64,000 bases of DNA from Symbiobacterium thermophilum (GCA_020725145.1 DYFO01000002.1:7777-71776); one strand, 5' to 3'; shown: positions 19,485-43,605, counted from the first letter of the stretch. Numbers and translations are program-made. Notes: generated from the letters alone by a model not told the origin.

Positions 19485-20657
19485 TCAGCCTCCTCCCGCG
19501 CGGAAGACCACCTCTCCCCGTATGACCGTCGCCACCACTTGCGTCTTGAGCTCGAACGGCGAACCGCTCCAGAGCACGAGGTCGGCCTCTTTCCCGGGCT
19601 CCACGCTGCCCAGGCGGTCGCCCACGCCGCAGATCGCGGCCGCATGCAGCGTGACCGCCCGCAGGGCATCCTGTTCCGCCATCCCTTCCCTGATCACCAT
19701 CGCCGCCACCAGCGGCAGGTGACGGATGGGGATCACGGGATGGTCGGTGCAGAGCGCCACCTTGACCCCGGCTCGGGCCAGGATCCCGGGAGTTGCCAGT
19801 GTACGGTCCTTGAGCTCCACTTTGGTCCGCGAGGTCAGGGACGGCCCTATCACGCAGGGCACCTGTCGGCGTGCCAGCTCCGCCGCGATCTTGTGGCCCT
19901 CGGTGCAGTGCTCAAGCGTTATCGGTATGTCGAACTCCGCGGCGATGCGCAGGGCGGTGAGGATGTCGTCCACGCGATGGGCGTGGATTCTAAGCGGTAT
20001 CTCCCTCCGGAGGACACGGACCACCGCCTCCATACGAAGATCACGTTCGGGTGCCTTGTCCGGGTCGCCGGCGCCTTTTTCGAGCTTCACCAGGTAGTTC
20101 TGGGCCTTCACCAGGGTCTCGCGCAATAACGCGGCCGTGCCCATGCGGGTGGAGGGAAGCTTCTTGAGCTGGCTGTAGACACGCTTGGGATTCTCCCCGA
20201 GCGCCGCCTTCAGACCCGACGGGGCCTTCAGGATCAGCTCCTCGAGGCTCGCGCCAGCGGTGCGGATGGTGGCCCCCTCTCCGCCTACCACGTTGGCGCT
20301 GCCCGGCGAGGACCATACCGCGGTGACCCCGGCGGTTACCGCGTCCTTGAAGCCCTGATCCTCGTGGTTGATGGCGTCGATCGCCCGCAGGTGAGGAGTG
20401 ACGGGCTCGGTGGCCTCGTTGACGTCGTTGCCTTCCCAGCCGAGGCCTTCTTCCCATATCCCCACGTGGGCGTGCGCGTCGATGAAACCGGGGGTGAGCA
20501 CGCAACCCCGCCCCTCGATCACCTCCACACCCTGGTCAGGGCGAAGCCCCTTGCCGACGGAGACGATCTTCCCGTCGCGTATCAGTACATCGGTTTTGTC
20601 GAGTACGCCGTTGCTTGCCGTCCACACCTCAGCCCCGGTTATCAGTAGACCTGCCAC
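19485..20657 (-). CDS. Metal-dependent amidohydrolase superfamily protein
   Basis: 390 aa with TPGFIDAHAHVG (HxH metal motif) and later RIHAH and CTDHPV motifs. The substrate is unknown. Confidence 0.8.
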   Translation of the reverse strand: MAGLLITGAEVWTASNGVLDKTDVLIRDGKIVSVGKGLRPDQGVEVIEGRGCVLTPGFIDAHAHVGIWEEGLGWEGNDVNEATEPVTPHLRAIDAINHEDQGFKDAVTAGVTAVWSSPGSANVVGGEGATIRTAGASLEELILKAPSGLKAALGENPKRVYSQLKKLPSTRMGTAALLRETLVKAQNYLVKLEKGAGDPDKAPERDLRMEAVVRVLRREIPLRIHAHRVDDILTALRIAAEFDIPITLEHCTEGHKIAAELARRQVPCVIGPSLTSRTKVELKDRTLATPGILARAGVKVALCTDHPVIPIRHLPLVAAMVIREGMAEQDALRAVTLHAAAICGVGDRLGSVEPGKEADLVLWSGSPFELKTQVVATVIRGEVVFRAGGG

Positions 20658-20675: not shown

Positions 20676-21803
20676 TCAGTTGACTTCCATGATCTCCACG
20701 TTGGCGCGTGGCACGGTGATGACGGTGCCGTCTGCAAGTTCTGCCCTGAGCACCCGCACCCTGGCTTCGGTTTCCACGATGGTAAGGTCGGCGGGAAGCT
20801 CGCGGACCACCGCCAGCTTGCCGAAGTGCGGCTCGCGGATCAGCCTAACCAGCGTCCCGGGTTCGAGGCCGGTGGCGGCAGGCGCGCCGACCTGCGTCCC
20901 GGCCGGCCGCGGTTCATGGGGAACGATCACCTCCGGCCGCAGCACCCCCGCCCGTATCTGGGTGGCGCCGTTGACGCACGCCACCTTGCCCTCCATCTCT
21001 CGTAGCAGCTGGAAAGTACGAGGAGCCATCGGCATGGGACCGAAGCCTTCCGTGACCACCAGCGTCACCGCGATGTCCTCGTGTCCGGTGACCGCCACCC
21101 CCAAGTCGTAACCCAGCAGGTCGATGAGGTCCCGATCTATGATGCCGCCCGCGACCAGTGCCGCCACTCCCACCTCGATGGCCCGGGTAATGGCCTCGCC
21201 GGATATCAGGGAACCGCCCACCACGACGCACCCGCGGTCCTTGGGTCCCAGATGGTCGGCCCGGAGTGGGGTCGCCGGATCGTCGACCGCCACCCGTAGG
21301 CGACCGTAGGTTTCTCCTCCCACACCGAAGATCCCCTGTACGAGAGCCCCTATCGTCTCCACCGCCACCCCTTCCCGGGCGAACACCTTGACCACCCGCC
21401 CCGCCAGGTAGGCGTTTACCTCCACGGGAAGCGGGGGCTCGCGCAGCGTTACCTGCCCGGTGACCGGAGAGATCATCTCGATCACTCCGTCCGCCGGCGA
21501 GCGCGCCTCCCTGTGCACGAGGCCCAGAAATGCACTGAAGCTGGCGATGACATCTCCGCGGCTTACGGCATCCCCAACCGCCACCGTCATGTGCGAGGGG
21601 ATTTCCGCCGGCTCCACCCCCAGGATGTTGGCGATGTTCACGGTATGGGGATCCCCGGGAACCTCGGTGCGGGCCACAGGGGTATCCGGGGTCACCGTAT
21701 CGCCCACCTCGACCAGGACTTCCCCCAACAGAGGGAGGCGGCGGATCTTGCGAATGGTCGTTTCCCGGGTCACCTTCAGTCCCGGGGTGTAAGCGTGGGC
21801 CAT
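20676..21803 (-). CDS. Barrel-sandwich-hybrid + KOW-like protein, copy B (uncharacterised)
   Basis: 375 aa. The N-terminus has a lipoyl/RnfC-N-like split motif (GEVLVEVGDTVTPDTPVAR ... GDAVSRGDVIASF ... SPADGVIEMI). The central part reads GGIIDRDL...VTEGFG...NGATQIRAGVLRPEVIVP. The C-terminus is KOW-like (GTLVRLIREPHFGKLAVV). Confidence 0.6.
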   Translation of the reverse strand: MAHAYTPGLKVTRETTIRKIRRLPLLGEVLVEVGDTVTPDTPVARTEVPGDPHTVNIANILGVEPAEIPSHMTVAVGDAVSRGDVIASFSAFLGLVHREARSPADGVIEMISPVTGQVTLREPPLPVEVNAYLAGRVVKVFAREGVAVETIGALVQGIFGVGGETYGRLRVAVDDPATPLRADHLGPKDRGCVVVGGSLISGEAITRAIEVGVAALVAGGIIDRDLIDLLGYDLGVAVTGHEDIAVTLVVTEGFGPMPMAPRTFQLLREMEGKVACVNGATQIRAGVLRPEVIVPHEPRPAGTQVGAPAATGLEPGTLVRLIREPHFGKLAVVRELPADLTIVETEARVRVLRAELADGTVITVPRANVEIMEVN

Positions 21804-21810
21804 CGGCCAC

Positions 21811-23676
21811 TCACTCCCTGGGCAGCGGGCCTGCCAGACGCGTCAGCAGGTCCGCGGGATAGGCATCGACGCACCTGAACCACTCCACCAGCTTGCGTCG
21901 GCGTTGCACGGGGTCCTCGGGCAGGACCAGGGGGCGTCCGCGGCCGTCCAGGATCAACCCGCAGACGCCACCGTGTACCTCGGTCTTGAGCTTTCTACCC
22001 TTGCCGGCCCCCGCATCCATGCCCCAGCCCGGAACGACCTCCACCGTGGCCTTCTCGCCGACGCCCAGCGGCAGGACCCGCAGCTGCCCGGCCAATACCT
22101 CCTCCTCGACCTCGCCGGCGCCGGGCAGTGTCCCCTTGAGGGTGAAGGCGCGTTCTCCCGGGCGTCCGTTGCCCACGGGAGAGATCGCCGTGCCCAGGTG
22201 GACCAAGCAGTCGCGTTCGAACACCTGGGCGGCCGGCTCGGGACTGACCGTCCACAGCACCCCGAGCTGTGGCATCATGAAGATGCTGTCGACCGCCAGA
22301 CGGGTGACCCCTTCCGGCTGGAAGGCATCCAGCAACATCAGCGCCGCCTGCATACGCCGTGGAGCGTGCGAAAGCGCGCCTCCGGAGCCGACGAGGATCC
22401 CAAGTTCCATGAGGTCGATGTGGGTCTGTCCGGTAGCCTCTTGATCGAAGGTCTCGCCCATGTGGCGCAGGCGCTGAATCCCTTTGAGACCTCGGGCCAG
22501 GGTCTTGTGGTGTTCCATCGCCAGGCGCAGCGCTTCGCGCGCCAGCGCCTGCTCGATCAGGAGCTCCTCCAGGGTCTGGGGGATGGTGGTGGGCCGGATC
22601 ATCTTGTTGCGAATACGGTTCTTCAGGTCGACGGGGTCGACGGAGATGGGAAGCCAGCGCATCACGTTCTCCAAGCCCGCCTCCAGCAGGACGTTGGAGA
22701 TGCTGTAGCTCATTCCGAGGTTAGCGCTGACCGTCCGGACGAACAGCTCCTGCTCGGGGCCGAAGACCGAGAAGACGTCGGTGGTCGCCCCTCCGATATC
22801 CACACCGATGACGCTGGTGCGGTAGAGCTTGGCCACGTTCTGCATCCCCAGCCCGACCGCACCGGGCGTGGGCATGATGGGGGCGCTCGCCCAGGACATG
22901 AGGGTGGCATAACCGGGCGCCTGTGCCATCACGTGCTCCAGGAACAACCGGTGGATCTCCTCACGTGCCGGCCCGAGCTCCTCGCGTTCCATGACCGGAC
23001 GGAGGTTCTCCACCACCCGGAGGTCGGACAGTCCTCCCAGTACCTTGCGTACATGGTCGCGAGCCTTGACGTTGCCGGCAAAGATAACCGGCAGCTTGAA
23101 CGAGGTTCCCAGACGTGGACGTGGCTGGGCGGCGGCGATCAGCTCCGCCACCTGAGCGACGTGAGAAATGGTGCCACCGTCTACCCCCCCCGACAGCAGG
23201 ATCATGTCGGGGCGCAGGTCGCGGATGCGCCGGATCTTCTCGTGCGGTCGCCGGCCGTCGTCGATGGCGATGACGTCCATCACTATGGCGCCGGCGCCCA
23301 GCGCCGCGCGCTGCGCGCTCTCGGCGGTCATGGTCTTGATTACGCCGGCGACCATCATCTGCAGTCCTCCACCGGCGCTTGAGGTGGACAGGAAGAGGTC
23401 GGTTCCCGTTCCGTCGGCACTCCGGGGACAAAGCACGCCTTGTTGCCCGAGCAGCTTCCTCCCGGTAAGCTCCTCGAGCTCTCTAACCGCATTTCGCACG
23501 CCCAAGGTGACGTCTTCGAAAGGCGCTTCCACCGTGGTAGGGGCCTCGCCGCGGGCAACCAGCCGGTAGCCGCCACTTTGCCGCTCGATCAGGATGGCTT
23601 TGGTGGTGGTGCTGCCGCAGTCGGTGGCCAGGATGGAGTTGACCGGCCCCCAATTGCCGGTCTTGCCGTCAGCCAA
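21811..23676 (-). CDS. GlmL/MutL-like actin-fold (ASKHA) ATPase, copy B
   Basis: 621 aa with phosphate-1 ILATDCGSTTTKA and phosphate-2 IGVDIGGATTDVFS. Overall it resembles the glutamate-mutase-L family but is about 150 aa longer, with a C-terminal beta-rich extension. TTG start with RBS AAGGGGGAAGG. Confidence 0.75.
   Translation of the reverse strand: MADGKTGNWGPVNSILATDCGSTTTKAILIERQSGGYRLVARGEAPTTVEAPFEDVTLGVRNAVRELEELTGRKLLGQQGVLCPRSADGTGTDLFLSTSSAGGGLQMMVAGVIKTMTAESAQRAALGAGAIVMDVIAIDDGRRPHEKIRRIRDLRPDMILLSGGVDGGTISHVAQVAELIAAAQPRPRLGTSFKLPVIFAGNVKARDHVRKVLGGLSDLRVVENLRPVMEREELGPAREEIHRLFLEHVMAQAPGYATLMSWASAPIMPTPGAVGLGMQNVAKLYRTSVIGVDIGGATTDVFSVFGPEQELFVRTVSANLGMSYSISNVLLEAGLENVMRWLPISVDPVDLKNRIRNKMIRPTTIPQTLEELLIEQALAREALRLAMEHHKTLARGLKGIQRLRHMGETFDQEATGQTHIDLMELGILVGSGGALSHAPRRMQAALMLLDAFQPEGVTRLAVDSIFMMPQLGVLWTVSPEPAAQVFERDCLVHLGTAISPVGNGRPGERAFTLKGTLPGAGEVEEEVLAGQLRVLPLGVGEKATVEVVPGWGMDAGAGKGRKLKTEVHGGVCGLILDGRGRPLVLPEDPVQRRRKLVEWFRCVDAYPADLLTRLAGPLPRE
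22271..22375. repeat. DNA-level conserved segment shared by the two GlmL-like genes (partner at 26406-26510)
   Basis: Hand alignment gives about 85% identity over ~110 nt (ggcatcatgaagatgctgtc...gcgccgcctg...). It encodes ...QAALMLLDAFQPEGVT.LAVDSIFMMP.LGVL. Confidence 0.7.
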
Positions 23677-23791: not shown

Positions 23792-24184
23792 CTACGAGCC
23801 GTCTTCCGGAGTATGGCCGGATCGTCCAAAGAGCCGGCTCCAGATGCCGCGCCATCCCCGCGGGTGTGGCGGGCCAGGAGGCCTGCCGGCCCGTTCGGTG
23901 TCCAGTCGCTCCTGGAGACGCTCGATCAAAAGGTCGAGGTTTTCCCTGTTCTCAAGGAGAAAGGCGATCTCGTCCACGCGCTTGGGGTCCCAGATGGCGC
24001 CGAGCACCGGAGAGAAGAAATGCACCGCCTGACTCCCTACGAAGCTCAGCGGGCGGTGGGCCTCGATCATGAGTATGGCCGGAGTGAGCAGACCGCCCCG
24101 GGCCGCACGCTCCACGATCCAGTCGATCAGCTCGTCCCGTCGCTCGGGTGTCAGTTCGTCGCCAGCGTCTGCTCGAGTGGGCAA
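23792..24184 (-). CDS. Small uncharacterised protein, copy B (paralogue of 24255-24575)
   Basis: 130 aa. IDWIVERAARGGLLTPAILMIEAHRPLSFVGSQAVHFFSPVLGAIW...LLENRENLDLLIERLQE aligns by eye with the neighbouring 106-aa protein. Confidence 0.6.
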   Translation of the reverse strand: MPTRADAGDELTPERRDELIDWIVERAARGGLLTPAILMIEAHRPLSFVGSQAVHFFSPVLGAIWDPKRVDEIAFLLENRENLDLLIERLQERLDTERAGRPPGPPHPRGWRGIWSRLFGRSGHTPEDGS

Positions 24185-24254: not shown

Positions 24255-24575
24255 TCACCGCCCTGCTTCCTGTTCCAGCCGGCTCAGCAGACGGTCAAGG
24301 TTTTGCCTGTCTTCCAGGAGACAGGCCACCCGCGCAAGGTAGGCTTCGTCAAGACCGGGCCGCACAAGGCAGGTGATCGTGGCCATGAGCGGACCGAATG
24401 CGTGCAGCCACTGCGCGGCAAAGAAGCCGAGTGGCCGACAGGCCTCGCCCAACAGCAGGGCCGGAACCGCCAGGCCTCGCGTGCGGACCGTATCGGCGAT
24501 CTGCTCGATGAGATCGTCGATTCTCGGGTCTGACAGGTGTCTTCCTCCGGCGACGGTGGTTTTCCGTCCCAGCAT
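24255..24575 (-). CDS. Small uncharacterised protein, copy A
   Basis: 106 aa. IEQIADTVRTRGLAVPALLLGEACRPLGFFAAQWLHAFGPLMATI...LLEDRQNLDRLLSRLEQE. It has a hydrophobic helical-hairpin-like core flanked by charged helices. Confidence 0.6.
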   Translation of the reverse strand: MLGRKTTVAGGRHLSDPRIDDLIEQIADTVRTRGLAVPALLLGEACRPLGFFAAQWLHAFGPLMATITCLVRPGLDEAYLARVACLLEDRQNLDRLLSRLEQEAGR

Positions 24576-24602: not shown

Positions 24603-25928
24603 CTAAAAGAGCTCCACGTTCGCTCGGGGCACCACCACCGTCGTCCTGTCCTCAAGCACGACCTCCGCGACCGGTACGCGGGCCTCGGTGGGCAGCTCAT
24701 ATGGCTGTGCCGGGATCGCCGCCACTACTCCGATGTGCCCGAAGTAGGGATCGTTCACGATGCGCACGCGCTGCCCCGGGGCCAGCTCCTCGTCGACCGT
24801 GGTTTCGGCGACGAGATCCCCCTCCCAGCCGGGGAACGGCACGATCACCTCGGGGCGGATAGCCCCTGCCCGGATCTGGGTGGCGCCGTTGATGCACGCA
24901 AGCCGGCCGTCGAGCGAACGCAAGGTACCGAACGCGGTCTCGCGCATGGCGAGCTCGCCGAAGCCCTCCATGAGGATCAGGGTCAGCGGGATATCCTCCT
25001 GTCCGGTTATGCCCACTCCTACCTTGATACCCAACGTTTCCACCACGTCCAGGTAGGCCGCGGTGGCGCCGATCAATCCCCTCACCCCACAGTCCAACGC
25101 CCGTCGCAGGGCCTCGCGGGTGATGGGCCCACCGGCCACCAGGATTCGTCCCTCATCCTCGGGAGAAATGGCATCAGGGCCGAGCGTGCCGTCGGTCACC
25201 ACCTTGAGCGGCCCGTGCCCCTCTCTTCCGACCCCGAAGACCCCGGTCAGTTTCACCCCGGGGCTCTGGACTACCGCGCCCCGACCGGGCAAGATCTCGG
25301 CCACCACCCCGTTGAGGTAGGCGCGGGTGACCACCTCCTTGAAGGGACGGGAGATGGTGACGTACCCGGTCTGGGTGTTGATCTCGGTGATCACTCCCGA
25401 GATGGGAGCCAGCGCCGTCTTGGTGAAGAAGGCCTGCGTCTCTCCCTTCTTCGCCACCACCTGGCCCCGCTTGACCTCATGTCCGATGCTCTTCATCATG
25501 TTCTTCATGAGGTCGCGGGGCTTGCAGCCGATCTCGAAAGCCACATCGAAGCTGACGGGCGGCTCCTCCTTGCCGAACTCCTCGCGGATGATCACCCTGC
25601 CCGAGCGTGCGGAGATCTCCTCGATCACGCCGTCGGTCGGTGAGGCATACTCCTTGCGGCCGTACAGGCCTCTTTCCGCCACCGCGATGATCTCGCGCAG
25701 CTTGACGCGGTCACCCACCTGGCGACGCATGGCCTGGGGCAGCAGGTCGGGTTCGATACCCAGGAGCCTCGCCACCGGAAGAACCCAGGGTATGCCGGGC
25801 TTGAGATCGATTCGGGCCACCACCGTGTCCGGTTGCACCCTTTGGCCCGGTTGAACCAGCACCTCACCCGGAAGCGGCAACTTGCGGACCTTTCTTATGA
25901 GACTGACCCGGAAGGTGGCCTCACTCAC
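24603..25928 (-). CDS. Barrel-sandwich-hybrid + KOW-like protein, copy A (with an extra inserted lipoyl-like segment)
   Basis: The track ORF runs to 26018. The likely start is GTG at 25928, overlapping the upstream stop as GTGA (VSEATFRVSLIRKVRKLPLPGEVLVQPGQRV...). It shares NGATQIRAGAIRPEVIVP and the KOW-like GQRVRIVNDPYFGHIGVV with copy B, and has about 65 extra residues (GHEVKRGQVVAKK...PISGVITEI). Confidence 0.6.
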   Translation of the reverse strand: MSEATFRVSLIRKVRKLPLPGEVLVQPGQRVQPDTVVARIDLKPGIPWVLPVARLLGIEPDLLPQAMRRQVGDRVKLREIIAVAERGLYGRKEYASPTDGVIEEISARSGRVIIREEFGKEEPPVSFDVAFEIGCKPRDLMKNMMKSIGHEVKRGQVVAKKGETQAFFTKTALAPISGVITEINTQTGYVTISRPFKEVVTRAYLNGVVAEILPGRGAVVQSPGVKLTGVFGVGREGHGPLKVVTDGTLGPDAISPEDEGRILVAGGPITREALRRALDCGVRGLIGATAAYLDVVETLGIKVGVGITGQEDIPLTLILMEGFGELAMRETAFGTLRSLDGRLACINGATQIRAGAIRPEVIVPFPGWEGDLVAETTVDEELAPGQRVRIVNDPYFGHIGVVAAIPAQPYELPTEARVPVAEVVLEDRTTVVVPRANVELF

Positions 25929-27787
25929 CGGAGTCCGCCCCCTTTCCCCCGCAGCGGGCTGTCCTGGACGAACCTCTGCAGGGCTTCCGTCGGGTAGGCG
26001 TCCAGTCTTTGCATCCATTCCAGCAGCTTGAGCCGTCGCTTGCGGTCATCCCCCGGAAGCTCGATCGGGCGGCCCCGGGCATCCACGATCACCCCTACCA
26101 GCCCTCCGGACAGCTCGGTGACCAGCGGCCGACCCCGCCCCGCCCCCACGTCGAAGCCACCGGCCGGCAGGATCTCCGCCCGTGCCGTCTGCCCCGCGTC
26201 CAGCGGCAGGCGCACCAGTTCGCCGAAGGTCACCCGGGCTTCCTCGGTCCTGCCGTCCGGGAGGTGGAGCCGCACGGTAGCCACGAGCTGGCCCTCACGT
26301 CCGCGACCCACCGGGGCGATGCAGGTGCCCAGACGCACCAGGCAGTCCAGGTCAAACACCTCGGCGGCGATCTCGGGGTAGGCGGTGGAGAGCACACCCA
26401 GGTGCGGCATCATGAAGATGCTGTCCACCGCGAGCTGGGTCACCCCTTCGGGCTGGAAGGCGTCCAGCAGCATCAGCGCCGCCTGTGACCGCCGCGGGGC
26501 GTGCGACAGCACGCCACCGCTGCCGACCAGCATCCCAATACGCTTGAGGTCGATAACCTCTTCGCCAGCCGACTTAAAGATCTTCTGCTGCGTGCGCCAG
26601 CCGGCCGCGACCTCTTCCTTCTCGACCTTGCGGGCAAGGCTCTTGTGGTGCTGAAAGGACAGCCGCAGTGCCTCGCGGGCCAAAGCCTGCTCCAGCACGA
26701 GGCAGGAGAGGGTTTGCGGCAGCGTGGTGGGTCGCACCATCTTGTTGGCCACCCAGTCGGAGAAAGCGTGCCCGTCGACCTCGAAGGGGATCCAACGCAG
26801 TATGTTGGCGATCCCTGCCTCTTCCAGCACGTTGCAGATGCTGTAGCTCATGCCGAGATTGGCGCTTACCGTCCGGGTGAAGGTACCGTCGAAGTTGGAG
26901 AAGACGTCGGTGGTCGCGCCGCCGATGTCTACCCCAATGATGTTGGTCCGGTACCGTTCGGCCATCACCATGATGATGCGGCCCACCGCGCCCGGCGTCG
27001 GCATGATGGTCACGTCAACCCACTCCATGAGCTCGGCATATCCGGGGGCCTGGGCCATCACGTGGTTCATGAACAGGTCGTGGATCGCCTCGCGGGCGGG
27101 GCCCAGGTTCTCCACGTCGTGGCGGGGGCGCAGGTTTTCCACCACGTGCACGTCGAGCGTGGCCCCGGCGATCGCCTCGACGAGATCCACCGCGTCGCGG
27201 TTTCCGGCGTACACCAGTGGCAGCTTGTAGGTGGCCCCAAAGCGCGGCTGGGGGCTGGCCTGCACGATGGTCTCGGCGATAGCCGCCAGGTGGGTCACCG
27301 AGCCGCCGTCCACCCCGCCGGACATCAGGATGATGTCGGGTCTGAGTTCGGTGATGCGGGTGATCTGCTCCGACGTCGAGCGCCCGTCATCGACCGCTAT
27401 CACGTCCAGCACCACCGACCCCGCTCCCAGCGCCGCGCGGTGGGCGCTGGAAGCGCTGACCGTGCTGACCAGTCCGGCGACCATCATCTGCAGGCCACCA
27501 CCGGCGCTGGAGGTGGACACGTAGTAATCTACCCCGTCCTTGCCCTTCCGCGGACGCAAGAGCCTGCCCTCGGGAGTCAACAGGCGCCGCCCGCTGAGCT
27601 CCTCGAGGCGACGGATGGCCTTACGTACGCCGATCATCACGTTTTCCCAGGGAGCTTCCACGGTAGTGGGCATCTCCCCGCGGAAGGTCAGGCGGTAGTG
27701 GCCGTCCCGTTTCTCGATGAGCAGGGCTTTGGTGGTCGTGCTTCCCACGTCGGTTGCCAGGATGGTCTCTGGCGTTTTGTGGTCCAC
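25925..27787 (-). CDS. GlmL/MutL-like actin-fold (ASKHA) ATPase, copy A
   Basis: 620 aa with ILATDVGSTTTKA and IGVDIGGATTDVFS. About half of the residues are identical to copy B by eye along the full length. GTG start. Confidence 0.75.
   Translation of the reverse strand: MDHKTPETILATDVGSTTTKALLIEKRDGHYRLTFRGEMPTTVEAPWENVMIGVRKAIRRLEELSGRRLLTPEGRLLRPRKGKDGVDYYVSTSSAGGGLQMMVAGLVSTVSASSAHRAALGAGSVVLDVIAVDDGRSTSEQITRITELRPDIILMSGGVDGGSVTHLAAIAETIVQASPQPRFGATYKLPLVYAGNRDAVDLVEAIAGATLDVHVVENLRPRHDVENLGPAREAIHDLFMNHVMAQAPGYAELMEWVDVTIMPTPGAVGRIIMVMAERYRTNIIGVDIGGATTDVFSNFDGTFTRTVSANLGMSYSICNVLEEAGIANILRWIPFEVDGHAFSDWVANKMVRPTTLPQTLSCLVLEQALAREALRLSFQHHKSLARKVEKEEVAAGWRTQQKIFKSAGEEVIDLKRIGMLVGSGGVLSHAPRRSQAALMLLDAFQPEGVTQLAVDSIFMMPHLGVLSTAYPEIAAEVFDLDCLVRLGTCIAPVGRGREGQLVATVRLHLPDGRTEEARVTFGELVRLPLDAGQTARAEILPAGGFDVGAGRGRPLVTELSGGLVGVIVDARGRPIELPGDDRKRRLKLLEWMQRLDAYPTEALQRFVQDSPLRGKGGGLR
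26406..26510. repeat. DNA-level conserved segment shared by the two GlmL-like genes (partner at 22271-22375)
   Basis: See the partner entry; about 85% identity by hand alignment. Confidence 0.7.
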
Positions 27788-27892: not shown

Positions 27893-28510
27893 TTACTGGA
27901 TGAGCCCCAGCCATTCCTGTAGCACGTACTGCAGGCGCCCCAGGAACAGGTTGTAGCGGAACAGCACCGTGTTGCCGAACGCCGCCCCCAGGGCTATCAG
28001 GATCACGACCTTGCCGAACTGCGACGCGTACCCCATCGCGGGGTGTTCCTTGCTGACGGTGAAGAAGAAATACACCAGCGCGGAGAGGATGCAGATGAAG
28101 AAGAGCAGCTGGTTCACCACATTGCCCGCGCCGAAGTTCACGAAGCTGGCCGTTACCTGACCCAGGAACGGCTTGGCGTTGAAGGCCAGGTAGTACCCGG
28201 CGCCATACCCGATGTACGCCGACATGGGGTAACGGGCCAGCCAGGAGACGCTCGGGATGAACCGGGTATACAGAAGCAAGCCCAGGACGATGGGGATGAC
28301 GTATGCCCACCTGCCCTGCCCGATCATCTCGTCCTTGATCACGGGATGGATGTAGCTGTAGTAGTAGTAGGGAACACTCCAGCCGGTCGCCAGGGCGACC
28401 AGCACGTGCTCCGCCAGACGGTAGATGGGGTTGTCGCGATACAGGAAGGACCAGATGGCAAGCGTCCCGAGGGCTGCCGCCCATACCGCGGGATCTTTTG
28501 CGATGCTCAC
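27893..28510 (-). CDS. Polytopic integral membrane protein (about 6 hydrophobic segments), uncharacterised
   Basis: 205 aa, rich in aromatic and hydrophobic runs (LGTLAIWSFLY, VLVALATGWSVPYYYY, VIPIVLGLLLY, LLFFICILSALVYFFF, VVILIALGAAFG). I recognise no transporter signature. Confidence 0.65.
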   Translation of the reverse strand: MSIAKDPAVWAAALGTLAIWSFLYRDNPIYRLAEHVLVALATGWSVPYYYYSYIHPVIKDEMIGQGRWAYVIPIVLGLLLYTRFIPSVSWLARYPMSAYIGYGAGYYLAFNAKPFLGQVTASFVNFGAGNVVNQLLFFICILSALVYFFFTVSKEHPAMGYASQFGKVVILIALGAAFGNTVLFRYNLFLGRLQYVLQEWLGLIQ

Positions 28511-28561
28511 GCTATTTCACCTCCCCGTCCGCCACGGGACCGGTAGAGATTGCCGTTCGGT

Positions 28562-29386
28562 TCACTTGCGCGGGCTCGTCAGGTAACCGATGTTACCGAT
28601 GACCACCAGGAAGAACACCAGCAACGCGGCCAGCGATTGCGCGTCGGTGCCGGACGCTCCCCGGCCGGGTTTGCCGACCAGGATCTCGTACTCGGCTGCC
28701 CCCCGCAACCCGCCAATCTGGCCCGTGAACTGACCCGACTCCACGTAGGGCTTGTTCTCGGGGATGGACATGGTCAAGGTGGCCACGCTCATCGGTATCC
28801 CCTTCTCGGCACTGACGATACCGAGGTACTCCCTGCTGCCGGGGCTCCCCGTCTCAACCACGATGATGTGGCGGAAACCGCTGGCCTTGTCCAGGGCGTT
28901 GACTCCCCGCATGATGGAGTAGTCGGCCAGCGGCTTGCCGAAGTGATCGACGCCCCCGGCTCCCTCCATGATATTGGAGGTCATCAGCCTGAGGTTGGTG
29001 GTGGTTCCGGGCTTGTGCCCGAGGTTGATCCAGTCCACACCATACTGCTTTCCGTACTGCTCGGCTATGGGAGCAACGATGTCCTGGACGATCGTCGGGC
29101 CCCGGAGCCACATGCCGTAGACGACCGGCTTGAGGCCCTTTTGGAAAAGGTGGTGGAAAATCGCAACCACCTGCGGATCGAGTTCCGGCTTGGAAGATAC
29201 GTCGTACTCCGCCCCTACCCACACGAGGGAGCCCGCCGGCAGGGCGTCGAGCGCGTTGTAGACGGTCCTGACGTCGCTGCCGATCTTGACGGGAAGCCCG
29301 AGTGGAAACAGGAAGGCGACGATACCGACCACGAACACCAAAGCGTAAATCGGACGGCGGCCTAGCGCCTGAAGCCTTTGCATCAA
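28562..29386 (-). CDS. Bitopic membrane protein: N- and C-terminal TM helices flanking a ~210-aa soluble domain, uncharacterised
   Basis: 274 aa. N-terminal IYALVFVVGIVAFLFPLGL, C-terminal LAALLVFFLVVIGNIGYL. The central domain has no motif I recognise. Confidence 0.65.
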   Translation of the reverse strand: MMQRLQALGRRPIYALVFVVGIVAFLFPLGLPVKIGSDVRTVYNALDALPAGSLVWVGAEYDVSSKPELDPQVVAIFHHLFQKGLKPVVYGMWLRGPTIVQDIVAPIAEQYGKQYGVDWINLGHKPGTTTNLRLMTSNIMEGAGGVDHFGKPLADYSIMRGVNALDKASGFRHIIVVETGSPGSREYLGIVSAEKGIPMSVATLTMSIPENKPYVESGQFTGQIGGLRGAAEYEILVGKPGRGASGTDAQSLAALLVFFLVVIGNIGYLTSPRK

Positions 29387-29413
29387 GTCACACCTCCTTC
29401 CCCGGTGAGAGTG

Positions 29414-30040
29414 CTACCGGCCTCCGACGCCGCCCAGGTATGCCCGCTCAAGCCCGAGCATGACCCGCAGGGCGGTGGCGAAGCCGCCGAGATAGATCCC
29501 AAGGATGATGCCACGCATACCGGCGGTGTTGGGGATGTTGAGGATCCACGACCTGACGTCTCCCCAATAGCCCCAGATCGCCTCGCCGATGGGCGCCGAC
29601 CCCAGGAGGATGATCATCGCCGCCAGCAGCATGACCGTTGCCTCCCAGGTTCTTACCTTGAAAGCCCGGTAGGCGGCGGTGGTGATGAAGAAGGCGATGA
29701 TCCCGTACAGGGTCGCGTCCATGGGCGCGAAGATGTTGTCGAAGATCCACTTGTGGTGGAAGCCCTCGGTGGTGGTGATCAGCCCGAGGATGCCGTAGCC
29801 GTAGAGCACCAACAGCAGCACGATGCTGTTGTAGTAGCCGGGGGCCCGTCGCATGATCTTCTTGCCGTGGATCAAGGTGAGATTGATGACGCCGAGGCCG
29901 ATGGCGATGGCCCACATGAGGTTGCTCCACTTGTCCAGGACGTCAAGCCATCCCAGATTGTAGATGTGGAAGAAGAACTGCGAAAGAATCACGGCCAGGG
30001 CAGCCACCACGGTCAGCAGCATCGGGAACTCCTTACGCAT
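29414..30040 (-). CDS. Polytopic integral membrane protein (about 6 hydrophobic segments), uncharacterised
   Basis: 208 aa with MLLTVVAALAVILSQFFF, LMWAIAIGLGVINLTLI, IVLLLVLYGYGILGLI, LYGIIAFFITTAAY, VMLLAAMIILLG and GIILGIYLGGFATAL. Confidence 0.65.
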   Translation of the reverse strand: MRKEFPMLLTVVAALAVILSQFFFHIYNLGWLDVLDKWSNLMWAIAIGLGVINLTLIHGKKIMRRAPGYYNSIVLLLVLYGYGILGLITTTEGFHHKWIFDNIFAPMDATLYGIIAFFITTAAYRAFKVRTWEATVMLLAAMIILLGSAPIGEAIWGYWGDVRSWILNIPNTAGMRGIILGIYLGGFATALRVMLGLERAYLGGVGGR

Positions 30041-30112
30041 CGGAACACCTCCTCACTGCCCAAGTCTGGCCAGAGCGGCCCGCTGTTGCCGGCGGGCAGC
30101 CGGAGCGCGTGT

Positions 30113-30919
30113 TCACTTGGTCAGGATGCCCGTGAGCCAGTTGGTCTCGCCAACGTGCGCCAGGACGGTGCCCAGGATGATCAGGGCGAACACCCCGATG
30201 CGGGCCAGGTCCTGCCCCACCACCGTCCCCGTCAACACCGGTTCCTTCGAAAGGTACGCGCTGGCGGCGTACATCTCCTCGCCGATCAGCGTGTAGTCGC
30301 AGGCCGCGACGAAGAACGGGATCTGGTGGGTGTTGGCGGTGGCGCCGATCTGGATGGCCCCGAGGTAGGCTCCGCCCTCGGCGAACAACAGCGACTCGGC
30401 CCAGAAAGCCCCGAACATGATGTTGGCCGCCGGGCGCTCCCGCTCGTACATCCCGAGGACGGACGCAGCGTAGGCGAACTGCTCCGGCGAATGGTAGGTG
30501 ATGTCGTCGGGGTTGAAAGCATCGGGCCGGCCTGCCTCCAGGTACGCCTGCCGGATGACTTCCTGGTTGATGGCCATGACGAAAGCTTCCACGTTGGTCT
30601 GCAGCAGGCGGGTGTCATACTGGGCGCAGCGCTTGGCCACATGTCCGAGCATGGCGAAGGAAGCGAGCGTCTGTACGTTGGTGGCTTCGCCCAGACCCGG
30701 GGTGTAGTGCACGGGGCGACCCATCTCGGTGGCCCGACCGATGGCCTCGTCGATGGCCTCCAGGCCGGGGATCTTCCGGATCTCGGGGATCCTCTGGCCG
30801 GCGCGGGCCCGCTGGATCATGATGTAGACGAGGGCGCAGAAAACCAACAGGGCGAAGAAGGGGGCCACGTTGCCGGGCACAAAGACTCCCAGGGCTGGCG
30901 CGTCTTGCGCTAGCAGCAT
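30113..30919 (-). CDS. Bitopic membrane protein: TM - ~190-aa soluble domain - TM, uncharacterised; first gene of the membrane block
   Basis: 268 aa. N-terminal VAPFFALLVFCALVYIMI, C-terminal IGVFALIILGTVLAHV. ATG preceded by GTGAGGAGGTG. Confidence 0.65.
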   Translation of the reverse strand: MLLAQDAPALGVFVPGNVAPFFALLVFCALVYIMIQRARAGQRIPEIRKIPGLEAIDEAIGRATEMGRPVHYTPGLGEATNVQTLASFAMLGHVAKRCAQYDTRLLQTNVEAFVMAINQEVIRQAYLEAGRPDAFNPDDITYHSPEQFAYAASVLGMYERERPAANIMFGAFWAESLLFAEGGAYLGAIQIGATANTHQIPFFVAACDYTLIGEEMYAASAYLSKEPVLTGTVVGQDLARIGVFALIILGTVLAHVGETNWLTGILTK

Positions 30920-30952: not shown

Positions 30953-30988
30953 GGAACAAAACAACAATTCGGTAAAGACCACCGAACT
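30953..30988 (-). terminator. Weak terminator-like hairpin with U-rich tail in an AT-rich intergenic patch
   Basis: Minus strand reads UUCGGU-ggucuuu-ACCGAA followed by UUGUUGUUUUGUU. The stem is only 6-7 bp, so read-through is likely. Confidence 0.3.
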
Positions 30989-31026: not shown

Positions 31027-31479
31027 CTAGCTGGACTTTGTTTCGGGAAGTCTGGTCTCGACTTCCCGGACGATGCTCTCGGGGTCGCCCTGGAAGTAGA
31101 GCACTACCGCACCGCGGCGCCGACGACGACGTCTGGGCAGCACCAGGCAATCGGGCTGGAGGCGCCAGCCCGCAAGGTCGTCCCACGGCACGAACTCCCC
31201 AAAGAAACCGAGGTGCCGCGTGTGCACGCCCCGCGTGGTGATCACGTAGTCAATGGGGAAGAAGAACTGGCTCAAGGCACCGACCAGCAACACCGCCGAC
31301 ACCAGGGTCAGCCCGGTCGAACGGTAGGCAACCTGCACCACCCCCAGCCCCGCCGCCAGCGCGGCCACCAACGCCAGAGAGCGGGCCGGTCGACGCCGTA
31401 GGAGGTGGGCCCGCCACCTCAGAAGCTCGCCCTCTGGAGCCTCTACCCCATCCCTGCTACCCGATTTTCCGTGCGTCAA
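31027..31479 (-). CDS. Membrane protein with two TM helices and a small C-terminal (PH-like?) domain
   Basis: 150 aa with LALVAALAAGLGVVQVAY and LTLVSAVLLVGALSQFFF, then about 80 soluble residues. A 4-nt overlap with the upstream gene suggests translational coupling. Confidence 0.55.
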   Translation of the reverse strand: MTHGKSGSRDGVEAPEGELLRWRAHLLRRRPARSLALVAALAAGLGVVQVAYRSTGLTLVSAVLLVGALSQFFFPIDYVITTRGVHTRHLGFFGEFVPWDDLAGWRLQPDCLVLPRRRRRRRGAVVLYFQGDPESIVREVETRLPETKSS

Positions 31480-32690
31480 ACCCTTGCCCCCCTTCGTCCG
31501 TCCGTCACCCCGCCCAGCAGCAGCGCCGCCAGCCGATGGTCATACCGTAGCGTCACCGCTTGCTCCGGGCACAGCTCGTGGCAACACAGGCACCCCACAC
31601 AGCAGTACTTGTTCACGCGGGGCGGCCCTGTCTCCGGGGTGATGGCCCCCACGGGGCAGCTGGCTCGGCACAGCCCGCACGCGGTACAGCGTTCGGCATC
31701 GATGACGGGACTCACCCGCCCCAGCTCCAGGGCCCATCTCACCAGCGGACGTGGCAGCCTGCCGGTCAGTGCCCGCAGGAACATGCCCGTGGGCAGCCGA
31801 AAGCCCCTTACCTTGAGTTCTTCCAGGTGGTCGCCCACCGGTACTACATCCTCGTAGCGGGCGGTGCCCGTTCCCATGGCCGCCGCGGCCGCGGTTGTCG
31901 GCACCACCTGCGGATGCAGTCCCACCAGCATGGCGGCGACGGTATCAACCGCCACGCCGTCATGCCCCGCCAGGAGCGCCCCCACGTGCCGGGGCCGCCC
32001 GGCTCCCGGACCGTTACCCTCCATGGCCACCACCGCGTCCATCAGGGTCAGCGCCGGCCGCACCGTCCGGTAGAGATCGCAGAGCAAGGCTGCCAGCTCC
32101 TCAACCCGTGGCGCCACGCGGTGGCAATCCGCCTTCTGCAGGCCGGGCAGGCAGCCCAGGACGTTCTTCACCGCGCCGGTAAGCACGGTCAGGCTGTGGG
32201 TCTTCAGTTTCGGAAGGTTGACCACCAGGTCGGCCTCGGCCACGGGGCGCGACAGGTAGAAGACGGGGAAGACGTCGCGGGTGTGACCGCGATTGGGCAC
32301 CGCCACCACACCCTCCTGATCGAAGTTCAGCACCCGTGCGCCCGCCTCGCGGGCCGCCCTGGCGACCCCCGAAACCTCGAGGGCAGCGGCGGTAAGGCTC
32401 TGACCCAGGACGGCACCGCCGGAGCTGTCTCCCACCCATACGTCGGCTCCGAATCCGCGGAGCACGGCGGTGACCGCCGCCACGACCGCCGGATGGGTGG
32501 TGACCGCCCGACCGGGCGGCCGGGGGCTAAGCAGATTGGCCTTGAGGAGCACCCGGGTCCCGGGTCGGATCCCGTCGCCGGGGCCGCCGACGGCGGTCAA
32601 CGCCCGCCTGACGGCCTCACGCACCTCCTCGCGGGCATAATCGGCACATCGTGCCAGGGCAACTCTCACCGGCTCGCCCAGCCGGACCAC
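31476..32690 (-). CDS. DUF362-family protein fused to a 2x[4Fe-4S] ferredoxin domain
   Basis: The track ORF extends to 32891. The likely start is GTG at 32690 (VVRLGEPVRVALARC...). It has GTRVLLKANLL...THPAVV...VGDSSG and C-terminal CTACGLCRASCP plus CVGCLCCHELCP. Confidence 0.7.
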   Translation of the reverse strand: MVRLGEPVRVALARCADYAREEVREAVRRALTAVGGPGDGIRPGTRVLLKANLLSPRPPGRAVTTHPAVVAAVTAVLRGFGADVWVGDSSGGAVLGQSLTAAALEVSGVARAAREAGARVLNFDQEGVVAVPNRGHTRDVFPVFYLSRPVAEADLVVNLPKLKTHSLTVLTGAVKNVLGCLPGLQKADCHRVAPRVEELAALLCDLYRTVRPALTLMDAVVAMEGNGPGAGRPRHVGALLAGHDGVAVDTVAAMLVGLHPQVVPTTAAAAAMGTGTARYEDVVPVGDHLEELKVRGFRLPTGMFLRALTGRLPRPLVRWALELGRVSPVIDAERCTACGLCRASCPVGAITPETGPPRVNKYCCVGCLCCHELCPEQAVTLRYDHRLAALLLGGVTDGRRGARV

Positions 32691-32821
32691 CTCCCGGGCC
32701 GGTAGGAGGCCGGGGCGGGCCTCCCCTGCACGGGGAGACCCGCCCCGGGACCATGCCCTCGTGAAGCCCTCCCCGCCCCCGGGAATTGCTTCGGGGCGGC
32801 TTGCCCTTATCCTCCACGGGG

Positions 32822-33322
32822 TTACCGAAGTTGGATCCCCGCCGGTCCCACGAACCTGACGGCAGCCGGCTCTCCCAAAAAGACGGCCCACGCCTCGTAC
32901 TGTCCTGGCTCAAGCGGGCGCCCCCGGTCGTCGCGCCCGGTCCAGACGGCGGTGTAGATCAAAGTCTCACCGGGTTCCAGCACGAGGCGGCGGCCCGTGG
33001 TACCGTCGGTTCTTGGGCGCCACCACTGCCACACCACCAGGTCTCCCCTGGTTATGGTGAAGTCGCACTCCTGCCCGGCCAAAAATTCCAGTACGACTGC
33101 CTGACCGCCCGCGTTGCGTACCGTCAGTCTCAGCTCCACCGGCTCTCCTACGCCGGCCACCGCTTTGGAGCATTCCAGGCTGTAGGCCAGCCCTTGCGGT
33201 TCCTCACACAAGAGCCCGGGGTCGGGTTCGGGGAGAGCCTCCTGTCCCCCGCTCTTCGGCCAGCCGACCAGCGCCACCATCGCAACCGCCGCGATGCCCA
33301 GCAGGTAGCGGGAAAGGCGCAT
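32822..33322 (-). CDS. Secreted BsuPI-like intracellular-proteinase-inhibitor domain protein
   Basis: 166 aa with an N-terminal signal/anchor (YLLGIAAVAMVALVG), then LRLTVRNAGGQAVVLEFLAGQECDFTI...VVWQW...LEPGETLIYTAVW. Confidence 0.65.
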   Translation of the reverse strand: MRLSRYLLGIAAVAMVALVGWPKSGGQEALPEPDPGLLCEEPQGLAYSLECSKAVAGVGEPVELRLTVRNAGGQAVVLEFLAGQECDFTITRGDLVVWQWWRPRTDGTTGRRLVLEPGETLIYTAVWTGRDDRGRPLEPGQYEAWAVFLGEPAAVRFVGPAGIQLR

Positions 33323-33399: not shown

Positions 33400-34281
33400 T
33401 CAGGCGTGGCCGATCTCTTCCCTGAGGCCGAGGTAGAGGGCGATGTTTGCCCGCGGGTGCCGTACCGGCTCGATCTTGCCCCCGTCGGCGGTCAGCACGG
33501 TGGTCACCCCGGGTCCGTGCCCCGCCAGGTAGGAATCGGTGTGAACCACCACCCCCACTTCTATGGAGCCCCGGCGGTAGCTTCGGCCGAAGCTTCCGGA
33601 CCGGTCGCGCACCGCCACGAGGTCGCCTAGCCGCAGCCCGAGCAAGCCGTGTTCTCGGAGAACCTCGCGGTCCTGGGTGGTAATGTCGTAGTCTCCTCGC
33701 TCCGATGAAGGCGACCCGATCCCCGATCCCATCAGTTCGGGAGGAACCTCGGCCACCACCGGAACCCGCAACCTGCCACCGGCCGCCTCCACCTGCATCC
33801 TTTCCAGCAGGTCGGGATCGAGGTTCATGCACCTGACGCCCGGGAATCCCTCGATCTCCAGTCCCTGCCCGCAAGCCCGGATCTGGATCTTGTCGCCCAG
33901 GACCAGTCGCTCGAGGACGTCGGGAGGGAAGTCCACGAGAACGTGCTCTATCCCCCCGTGCTTGCCCACCACCGTCCCGCGCTCGCCTCTGGCCTCTCCG
34001 GAAACCACCACCGCCACGTTCCCCAGGCAGGCCAGCGCGTTGAGTGCGCCGTTGCTTTGCTCGTCCTTCACCTTGATGCTGACGCCGGGCTCCACATGAT
34101 CCCCCGCCCACCCCAGTGCGGGGTCACCGACCCGGACGTTGTAGACGATTCCGCCCACCCCGGGCAAGAGCCGGGCCACACCGTCGAAGCCCACCCGATA
34201 GGGAGCCCTGAGCTGAGGCGACGACACTTCTCCCAGCACCGATATCTTGACCAGCCGGTCACGGTTGAGTTTCAAGATCAC
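33400..34281 (-). CDS. Conserved hypothetical protein (DUF4438-like by recollection)
   Basis: 293 aa, beta-rich, with no catalytic motif recognised. Confidence 0.5.
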   Translation of the reverse strand: MILKLNRDRLVKISVLGEVSSPQLRAPYRVGFDGVARLLPGVGGIVYNVRVGDPALGWAGDHVEPGVSIKVKDEQSNGALNALACLGNVAVVVSGEARGERGTVVGKHGGIEHVLVDFPPDVLERLVLGDKIQIRACGQGLEIEGFPGVRCMNLDPDLLERMQVEAAGGRLRVPVVAEVPPELMGSGIGSPSSERGDYDITTQDREVLREHGLLGLRLGDLVAVRDRSGSFGRSYRRGSIEVGVVVHTDSYLAGHGPGVTTVLTADGGKIEPVRHPRANIALYLGLREEIGHA

Positions 34282-34320: not shown

Positions 34321-35358
34321 CTACCCCGCCGGCTCCAGGCGCCCCGTCGCGCGGATGGCGCCGCAGGGCTCTCCGCGATGGTCGAGCACGCGAGGACGGT
34401 GAAGATCGGCCATGAGCGAGGTCTCGTGCCCGTCCAGTGCCCCTATTTGCTGCAGCAATTCGATCACCGCCGGCGGCACCGCCCGTGCCGACCCGTCCTC
34501 GATCTTCAGCGCCAGTCCCCAGCCCTGCCCGACCGTGCCGACGCAGTAGACACCCTCGGCTCCCGACTTGCTCACCAGCTTTCCGCCTGCCACCTGCATG
34601 AGCCGCGTGCACAGCCTGCCGGTCCCTGCCACCAGCTCGGGGTGCGCCTGCATGGCCCCGGTGACCGCCCGGGCCGCGCGCCCGATCGCCTCGGGCAACT
34701 CGGCAGGTTGGGCCAGACGTGCATAGGCACGCGCCATCGACGCAAGCGGCATCGCCCAGACCGGCGCCCCGCACCCGTCCACCGCCACTTCGAGATCCTC
34801 CGGAGCCATGCCGGCGAACAGCGCCAGATTGCCGCGGTTGCGCACCTGCAGCGGGTGCTCGGGGTCAAGGTATCCCTGGGTTGGCCAGCCGAGGTGCCGG
34901 CAGGCGGCTAGCATGCCGGCGTGCTTGCCCGAGCAGTTGTTGTGCAGCGGCCCCGGCCGCTCGCCCGCCCGCTCGAGTTCGCGTGCGGCCGTGGCGTCCA
35001 ACGGGGGATGGACGCCGCAGGCAAGCGCGTCCGTCTCCAACCCTACCTTTCGCAGGATGGAGCTCACCGCCTCCAGGTGCTGCCTCTCGCCGGAGTGGGA
35101 GCCACACATCACCGCGATCTCCGGCGGTGTAAAGCCGTAGCGGGCGGCCGCTCCGGTCTCCAGCACCGTCAGGGCATGGAAAGGCTTGGCCGCCGAGCGC
35201 ATGAAGGCCATGCGGTACGGGTTGCCGAGCCGGAACAGAAGCTTGCCGGCGGCATCCACGACCGCCGCGTCCCCGCGGTGAAGGCTCTCCCGTCCCTTGC
35301 CACGCACCACTTCCACCAGTACCGCGGGGAGCAAGGTGTCCTCGATCACCGTCCCCAT
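34321..35358 (-). CDS. Asparaginase II-family (Rhizobium-type) amidohydrolase
   Basis: 345 aa with MRSAAKPF, MCGSHSGE and NNCSGKHAGML motifs. Confidence 0.8.
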   Translation of the reverse strand: MGTVIEDTLLPAVLVEVVRGKGRESLHRGDAAVVDAAGKLLFRLGNPYRMAFMRSAAKPFHALTVLETGAAARYGFTPPEIAVMCGSHSGERQHLEAVSSILRKVGLETDALACGVHPPLDATAARELERAGERPGPLHNNCSGKHAGMLAACRHLGWPTQGYLDPEHPLQVRNRGNLALFAGMAPEDLEVAVDGCGAPVWAMPLASMARAYARLAQPAELPEAIGRAARAVTGAMQAHPELVAGTGRLCTRLMQVAGGKLVSKSGAEGVYCVGTVGQGWGLALKIEDGSARAVPPAVIELLQQIGALDGHETSLMADLHRPRVLDHRGEPCGAIRATGRLEPAG

Positions 35359-43349: not shown

Positions 43350-43540
43350 GAGCGCGGCCAAAACCCCGATACGGGACAAAGCCCCAGATCGGCTGCTCCC
43401 ACCCGGACCCTTTTGTACCCGCAGTCGCCTGGGGTTTTGTCAGGTCCGTGACGGTCATGGGGGACCGCCGGTCACCCGCCGATGTTCCGAGATCCCGGTC
43501 CTCGTCAGCTCCTCCGCACGGGGAGCCCTGGCGCTTGGTC
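43350..43540 (-). ncRNA. glmS ribozyme (GlcN6P-dependent self-cleaving leader)
   Basis: The minus strand of the 318-nt glmS leader reads A-AGCGCCAGGGCUCC...GGAGCUGACGAGGACCGGGAUCUCGGAACAUCGGCGGGUGACC... This matches the conserved core elements AGCGCC (cleavage site), GACGAGG and CGGCGG(A/G)UG. The boundaries are approximate. Confidence 0.75.
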
Positions 43541-43605
43541 AAAGCCTCCGCAGCCGTTCCATATCCGAGTCTGGTGTTTACGCTCTTCCCTGACAACTGC
43601 GCCCG

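Follow-up and report, generated by a model that had tools for sequence, protein, structure and literature searches.

Four consecutive genes of Symbiobacterium thermophilum, here called g1 to g4, form a strongly conserved and co-evolving unit and probably build one membrane complex of an undescribed kind, widespread and ancient, for which the name 'DUF6754 quartet' is used. They lie in the window, a stretch of 64,000 nucleotides (nt) (GCA_020725145.1 DYFO01000002.1:7777-71776) in which positions are counted from the first letter, and were taken from a listing of open reading frames (ORFs), with lengths in amino acids (aa), as follows.

30113-30919, minus strand: g1, 268 aa
29414-30040, minus strand: g2, 208 aa
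28562-29386, minus strand: g3, 274 aa
27893-28510, minus strand: g4, 205 aa

These four genes are real. A preliminary description had drawn a four-gene block encoding membrane proteins of 268, 208, 274 and 205 aa, and exactly these minus-strand ORFs were recovered. Each start is preceded by a GGAGG-type Shine-Dalgarno sequence, GAGGAGG in the case of g1, and third-position GC of the four genes is 0.84-0.89 in a window of about 66% GC. The closest relatives among the matches listed are Bacillota metagenome-assembled genomes (MAGs) and one Symbiobacterium MAG. The same description had an alternation of end-anchored and polytopic proteins, which is borne out by hydropathy averaged over about 100 homologues per family: g1 and g3 have a single helix near either end with a soluble domain of about 200 aa between, and g2 and g4 have about six membrane helices apiece. 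AlphaFold2 (AF2) models, which cover g1 and g3 singly, agree with this helix-domain-helix layout.

One genome per species was scanned for g1, which is carried by at least 596 species genomes, and gene order was analysed in the best 80 of these at least 596 g1-encoding stretches. The four genes occur on one strand and in the same order, g1-g2-g3-g4, as 95 complete quartets in 75 of the 80 loci, the remainder being cut at contig ends. Phyla with the quartet include Bacillota, Poribacteria, WOR-3, Zixibacteria, Eisenbacteria, Ignavibacteria, Planctomycetota and Coatesbacteria. Whole quartets often stand in tandem, two or three in a row, and the copies are 43-53% identical. The pairwise-identity matrices of the four families correlate with r = 0.89-0.92, and g1 to g4 therefore evolve together. 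Mean column identity is highest in g1 (62%) and lowest in g3 (34%), whose mean pairwise identity of 0.38 is also the lowest among the four families. Homologues of g1 make up more than 8000 clusters at 90% identity, and g4 has 1581 representatives (50% identity) at E <= 1e-3.

The protein g1 matches the Pfam family DUF6754 (PF20539) over profile positions 11-251 of 257 with 331.6 bits (E = 3.4e-99; gathering score, 27 bits), a family that carries no assigned function in Pfam, and g2, g3 and g4 have no family match in Pfam or NCBIfam. Because three of its four subunits belong to no family, this type of quartet is invisible to annotation. Pfam scans of 61 g2 and 60 g4 homologues gave scattered membrane-protein noise and no consistent family. 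PADLOC-DB gave zero matches at E <= 0.01 among 10 cluster proteins, that is, no defence signal, and sequence searches of the PDB found no relatives with the g1 and g3 profiles or with g5 and g6, two neighbouring genes described below. Foldseek against the PDB with the g1 and g3 models found nothing at E < 1e-3; the best matches (E = 1.9e-3 and 4.6e-3, TM-score <=0.37) are generic SDR, SIS or RCK-like folds. A search of the literature on DUF6754 (PF20539), PF13941 and GlmL/ASKHA found nothing relevant. The absence of any known permease, channel or secretion motif, noted in the preliminary description, is thus upheld by Pfam, NCBIfam, PADLOC and the PDB sequence and fold searches, with the DUF6754 match of g1 as the sole exception. 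Matches to annotated ECF, TRAP or Rnf/Nqr families were also looked for, and none was found; per-member scans, which list the 25 most frequent families, show no model of the ECF or TRAP type (EcfT/CbiQ, DctQ/DctM) at E <= 1 for g2, g4 or the homologues of either. It is extremely improbable that the four proteins are divergent members of a characterised system such as ABC, ECF, TRAP, Rnf/Nqr or anti-phage defence: only the overall subunit layout is analogous, whereas family searches give g2 to g4 nothing and g1 only DUF6754, PDB searches by sequence and fold are negative, and so is profile comparison with the E. coli Rsx subunits.

The orientation of the subunits was predicted from the distribution of lysine plus arginine (K+R) and from domains that are naturally added in homologues. 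In the AF2 models the soluble domains of g1 and g3 are confidently folded. The model of g1 (pLDDT 87.5) has helices at residues 18-39 and 227-256 with an alpha/beta domain between, and K+R is 4.0 just after the first helix against 0.8 before it. Of 103 g1 homologues, 58 are extended by about 90-270 aa ahead of the first helix, most of these belonging to double-membraned phyla; the extensions inspected begin like a signal peptide and contain an FN3-like domain (motif DTPNDxGxxIxxxW), and in one of them (L041) the Pfam fn3 match is sub-threshold with E = 4.7e-5. Since these signal-peptide-like and FN3-like extensions precede the first helix, the N-terminus of g1 is placed outside and its DUF6754 domain in the cytoplasm, a prediction supported by both the K/R bias and the extensions. 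This domain is acid-rich, with about 20 invariant charged residues and about 50% identity between phyla, the level expected for a catalytic or coupling domain; a P-loop is not present in the g1 alignment.

The g3 model (pLDDT 95.3) has helices at residues 11-26 and 242-270. K+R is 2.9 before the first helix and 1.0 after it, and the C-terminal tail has 2.3 with hardly any acidic residues; this bias supports the prediction that the variable alpha/beta domain of g3 lies outside the cytoplasm. Its best Foldseek match has E = 1.9e-3 and a TM-score of 0.25, and the matches are generic Rossmann-like enzymes. In g2 the inside loops have a K+R of 10.2 and the outside loops one of 3.5, and both termini are clearly predicted inside; hhalign finds no internal repeat. 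A natural fusion bears on both proteins. In a Planctomycetota locus (L054, 1255-2598, plus strand), the predicted outer loop of g2 between TM3 and TM4 contains an in-frame g3-like domain (g3 HMM positions 35-208, E = 1e-40), and a separate g3 gene still follows the fused g2. This fusion, a single case in 160 loci, lends support, of an indirect kind, to the predicted topology and to a contact between g2 and g3.

For g4, K+R is 6.4 on loops 1, 3 and 5 and 4.8 on the others. Some g4 homologues have insertions of 150-220 aa in the loops predicted to be external (2 and 4): EF-hand pairs in loop 4 of P0273 and P0274 (40 bits against a cut-off of 25.9), a domain with weak carbohydrate-binding or lyase-N-like similarity in loop 2 of P0299, and, again in loop 4, domains in P0248, P0250 and P0309 that match no identified fold and look like beta-sandwiches. 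The N-terminus of g4 is probably outside, an orientation that fits the EF-hand and other insertions in loops 2 and 4. Within g4 a two-helix unit is repeated, residues 36-89 matching residues 98-155 with an hhalign probability of 35% (P = 4e-4).

Outer domains of these kinds, FN3, EF-hand, Ig-like and carbohydrate-binding-like, are typical of proteins that touch the envelope or extracellular polymers, and they raise the question of whether the quartet is a cell-envelope machine or a sensor, engaged in export, surface-polymer handling or trans-envelope signalling and not in import. In LptF/G, a periplasmic domain lies between TM3 and TM4 of a six-helix subunit, and the position of the g3-like domain in the g2 of L054 recalls LptB2FGC extractors, which also have a single-helix partner. 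Unlike the Lpt domain, which is a beta-jellyroll, the insert has an alpha/beta fold; an ATPase and homology are both lacking, and the arrangement was seen in 1 of 160 loci. Pfam scans find no histidine-kinase, GGDEF or secretion domains in the cluster, its neighbours include no consistent envelope-biogenesis or signalling genes, and the quartet also occurs in Bacillota, where g1 is without the FN3 extension. An envelope machine or sensor is thus quite unlikely.

From its architecture and context, the quartet could well be an undescribed four-subunit transporter of the uptake type, and this reading is tentatively preferred. The reasons are a core of six plus six helices, a variable and accessorised outer face, and one cytoplasmic domain that stays constant; the reading also fits the paralogous expansion of the unit as a whole and the catabolic neighbours, which differ by lineage. 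The core itself looks transporter-like because of its 6 + 6 helices and the repeat in g4. In the proposed arrangement, g2 and g4, which would be unrelated and have about six helices each, would form the membrane core, g3 would hang its variable alpha/beta domain outside, next to the TM3-TM4 loop of g2, and g1 would hold its highly conserved acid-rich alpha/beta domain on the cytoplasmic face. The variable outer parts, namely the g3 domain and the lineage-specific FN3, EF-hand and possibly carbohydrate-binding-like domains, would bind or deliver the substrate, and the constant g1 domain would couple or gate transport, perhaps in concert with g5, a GlmL-like ATPase of the ASKHA fold, and the g5 partner g6. 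Transport as the function, the class of substrate and any coupling to g5 and g6 are inferred.

One analogy is with ABC importers. There too, a single operon encodes a pair of roughly six-helix membrane subunits, an alpha/beta domain that is external and variable, and a constant domain in the cytoplasm; paralogous sets occur in tandem, and the neighbouring genes are catabolic. Unlike in ABC systems, there is no ABC ATPase gene and no match to Pfam ABC_tran in 11 cluster proteins, and in place of a two-lobed binding protein g3 has one alpha/beta domain anchored by a membrane helix on either side; the two systems are not related in sequence or fold. If the quartet is a transporter or another membrane machine, it belongs to a widespread type, with carriers in many phyla and in at least 596 species-level genomes. 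Many carriers are uncultured degraders of organic matter, such as Poribacteria, WOR-3, Zixibacteria, Eisenbacteria and thermophilic Bacillota, and metabolic reconstructions of these organisms would, if the uptake reading is true, miss an uptake route. The predicted topology, the subunit contact and the natural domain insertions can guide experiments.

The quartet in the window is accompanied by genes centred on two ATPases of the GlmL/MutL family, as follows.

31027..31479, minus strand: g0a, small protein with two membrane helices by hydropathy
25925..27787, minus strand: g5, GlmL/MutL-family ASKHA ATPase (Pfam MutL, E = 4e-119) with a C-terminal extension of about 140 aa
24603..26018, minus strand: g6, N-terminal barrel-sandwich domain(s), central alpha/beta region and KOW-like C-terminus
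24255..24575, minus strand: g7, 106 aa, paralogue of g8
23792..24184, minus strand: g8, 130 aa, commonly preceding g5 in other genomes
21811..23676, minus strand: g5', second GlmL-like ATPase (Pfam MutL, E = 2.4e-125), 58% identical to g5
20676..21803, minus strand: g6', the common 375-aa form of the g6 family, 38-46% identical to g6

Both g5 and g5' match MutL and keep the ASKHA phosphate-binding motifs DVGSTTTK and DIGGATTD, as do the GlmL/MutL accessory proteins of B12-dependent mutases. Unlike GlmL, they score below the cut-off of the NCBIfam GlmL equivalog (214 bits for g5, cut-off 475) and carry the extra C-terminal region of about 140 aa; g5 belongs only to the wider Pfam MutL family. 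No mutase family, including glutamate mutase, was seen among the flanking genes scanned. To our knowledge, GlmL-like ATPases are otherwise known only as accessory proteins of B12-dependent mutases, and their recurrent link with the quartet points to an unexplored role for the family.

The annotated start of g6 overlaps g5 by 94 nt, and the true start is therefore probably further downstream. Compared with the common 375-aa form, g6 is longer by an insertion of about 95 aa that appears to be a barrel-sandwich domain. Its match to Pfam RnfC_N is sub-threshold (21 bits against a cut-off of 25.6), hhalign relates it to the N-terminus of E. coli RsxC with a probability of 35% (P = 4e-4), and mean column identity in the g6-family alignment is 50%. 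In metagenomes, g6-family genes also stand alone, with no g5 or quartet, beside accA and in some cases also lpxB (L123, L140, L159), and the family therefore also occurs outside this system. The small proteins g7 and g8 are 37% identical (BLASTP, E = 2e-18), and elsewhere their homologues are usually found just upstream of a GlmL-like gene. Homologues of g0a are present in 16 of 80 quartet loci, always at the cluster head, and also head g5-g6 clusters without a quartet.

Among metagenome loci anchored on g6 and with room upstream, g5 is immediately upstream in most, with some exceptions. Of 80 loci anchored on the quartet, 26-29 have the g5/g6 module, with g0a and g7/g8, next to it, and of 19 long metagenome loci anchored on g6, 7 have the quartet next to g6; these ATPase, g6 and small membrane-protein genes are the only neighbours that recur across phyla. 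Such recurrence also suits a different explanation, in which g1 to g4 would not import nutrients but would join g5 and g6 in an energy-coupled enzyme complex and serve as its membrane part, translocating ions or anchoring the enzyme, by analogy with Na+-translocating decarboxylases or Rnf/Nqr. The resemblance to Rnf and Na+-NQR lies in the cast: two opposed six-helix subunits of about 200 aa (in predicted orientation), one subunit with an outside domain, one cytoplasmic Rossmann-like domain and, next door, the g6 N-terminus with its RnfC/NqrA-like barrel-sandwich fold (hhalign 35%). Conserved polar residues at or in predicted membrane helices (g1 D237, g4 E34, g3 N265) would also suit an ion-translocating complex. 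However, there is no homology to RsxA, RsxE, RsxD or RsxG (hhalign <=0.7%): g2 and g4 reach <=0.5% against E. coli RsxA/E, and g1 and g3 reach <=0.7% against RsxG and have no Pfam FMN_bind match, the domain of RnfG/NqrC. Rnf-Nqr (PF02508) has no match at E <= 1 in g2, g4 or 121 homologues. Unlike Rnf/NQR, the quartet is without conserved cysteines and without RnfB/D equivalents; no conserved cysteines or cofactor motifs are seen in the g2, g3 and g4 alignments. Within 10 kb of about 63% of quartets g5/g6 are absent, the converse also occurs, and copy numbers do not match, one g5/g6 pair being found with three quartets, or two pairs with one quartet. The probability of such an enzyme complex is accordingly as low as that of the envelope machine.

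Several of these observations weigh against the uptake-transporter reading as well. First, transporter families gave no match for g1 to g4 or for 121 g2/g4 homologues. Second, no nucleotide-binding signature can be recognised in g1, whose best fold matches are generic, and the g3 domain is unlike known substrate-binding proteins by Foldseek against the PDB. Third, the topology of g4 is taken from a weak K/R bias (6.4 vs 4.8) and the type of inserted domains. Fourth, Pfam enrichment over 137 flanking genes is heterogeneous, with no universal partner and mostly lineage-specific synteny. Finally, the large share of quartets that lack g5/g6 and the g5/g6 modules without a quartet, including three from close relatives of the window context (L084, L085, L087; no quartet within 10 kb), mean that the two modules are linked but separable and that any coupling would be optional.

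The preliminary description read the block as an ancient two-gene duplication, in which an end-anchored and a six-helix protein were copied together, making g1 a paralogue of g3 and g2 a paralogue of g4. Should the predicted topology be right, the second copy would lie inverted in the membrane, and the product would be an antiparallel, pseudo-symmetric complex. BLASTP within the two pairs finds nothing (E ~2). The pairwise hhalign comparison of g1 (268 aa) with g3 (274 aa) gives a probability of 2.0% and P = 0.024 with profiles of about 100 sequences (residues 55-125 against 41-107), and 5.8% and P = 0.0065 in the same register with independently built alignments; adding the AF2 secondary structure raises the first figure from 2% to 5.9%. 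The comparison of g2 (208 aa) with g4 (205 aa) gives 0.9% with about 100-sequence profiles, out of register, and 1.2% with independently built alignments, and comparing the halves of the two proteins was negative. As a positive control, E. coli RsxA and RsxE, ancient six-helix paralogues, reach 98.8% (E = 5e-17) from single sequences. No profile probability within either pair thus exceeds 6% where undisputed paralogues of this kind reach 98.8%, and a duplication does not emerge from these comparisons, an outcome that the preliminary description had named as counting against it.

Of the alignments made by eye for the end-anchored pair, one stands and one does not. The segments LIGEEMYAASAYLSKEP and QIGGLRGAAEYEILVGKP occupy equivalent positions, the last strand and helix ahead of the second membrane helix, and the extended profile alignment reproduces their pairing. 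The pairing of YLGAIQIG with YLGIVSAEKG is probably spurious, the former being a strand in g1 and the latter a helix in g3. The C-terminal similarity proposed for g2 and g4 comes down to a 9-column GxxxG-like motif with P = 0.024, equal to that of control windows.

Some features of g1 and g3 are nevertheless what a duplication would leave. The AF2 models of both share the architecture and the same order of elements (TM, alpha, six beta-alpha units, TM), the weak profile match is reproducible and in register, and a permissive profile alignment runs collinearly through 221 columns, in which the conserved motif GEEiYAAsAYLSKEP is matched with GLRGAAEYExLvGKPG just ahead of the second membrane helix. 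In addition, g3 proteins make up 13 of the top 40 non-self matches to the g1 HMM and g4 proteins 10 of 40 to the g2 HMM, and the predicted orientations are opposite within both pairs, the g1 domain being conserved and placed in the cytoplasm, the g3 domain variable and placed outside. On the other hand, reverse HMM searches do not favour the proposed partner and sub-threshold cross-matches are inconsistent between directions, repeated beta-alpha units in this order are to be expected of any Rossmann-like fold, g1 and g3 have hardly any Foldseek neighbours in common, and the duplications visible today are of whole quartets. Paralogy of g2 and g4 is not supported by these comparisons, very remote homology of g1 and g3 is possible but unproven, and an origin of the quartet by two-gene duplication is unlikely. 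Opposite predicted orientation within g1/g3 and g2/g4 is shared with antiparallel pairs derived from dual-topology proteins (EmrE-like, Fluc, RnfA/E). In those pairs homology is obvious, whereas between g2 and g4 none is detected and between g1 and g3 it is marginal; and unlike there, inverting g1 with respect to g3 would move a soluble domain of 200 aa across the membrane. The boldest form of the transporter reading, a new class in which g1 is driven or gated by the ASKHA GlmL-like g5 with g6 and not by a P-loop ATPase, and which possibly arose from a membrane-inverted two-gene duplication, is very unlikely as a whole.

Regulatory features near the quartet are few. A 10-bp hairpin followed by a T-rich run lies in the 107-nt AT-rich gap between g0a and g1, as follows.

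30966..30988, minus strand: hairpin of 10 bp, then a T-rich run

It resembles a terminator or attenuator and stands ahead of the quartet; a scan for promoters and terminators gave counts equal to those of shuffled controls, and since terminator-like sites are not above these controls, the hairpin is only a lead. Rfam searches of the window and seven loci found no riboswitch naming a ligand. A glmS ribozyme (RF00234, 71.7 bits, E = 1.7e-14) at window positions 43394-43546, minus strand, is unrelated to the quartet. In another locus (L022:1164-1408, plus strand), a T-box stands ahead of a seryl-tRNA synthetase gene, followed by an S9 peptidase and three tandem quartets; as the T-box belongs to the synthetase, it is uninformative on the quartet.

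The remaining neighbours differ between lineages. In loci labelled Eisenbacteria, WOR-3 or 'bacterium', genes for glycine cleavage (GcvT/H/P) and lipoate ligase adjoin, and in Poribacteria the neighbours are sulfatase-like and sugar-isomerase-like, as assigned by eye from the sequence. Bacillota neighbours are peptidases (C26, S58, M55, M20, S9, TldD/PmbA), amidohydrolase, DUF4438 and asparaginase II. In the window, a gene for a DUF362 and 4Fe-4S ferredoxin protein (31476-32891, minus strand) has a stop that overlaps the g0a start by 4 nt, and its homologues adjoin the cluster in only 2-4 other loci. The cluster is flanked in the window by genes for amidohydrolase (19485-20657), DUF4438 (33400-34281) and asparaginase II (34321-35358), all on the minus strand, and related Bacillota loci have peptidases C26, S58, M55 and M20 at the same flanking positions, which gives these surroundings a flavour of amide and peptide catabolism.

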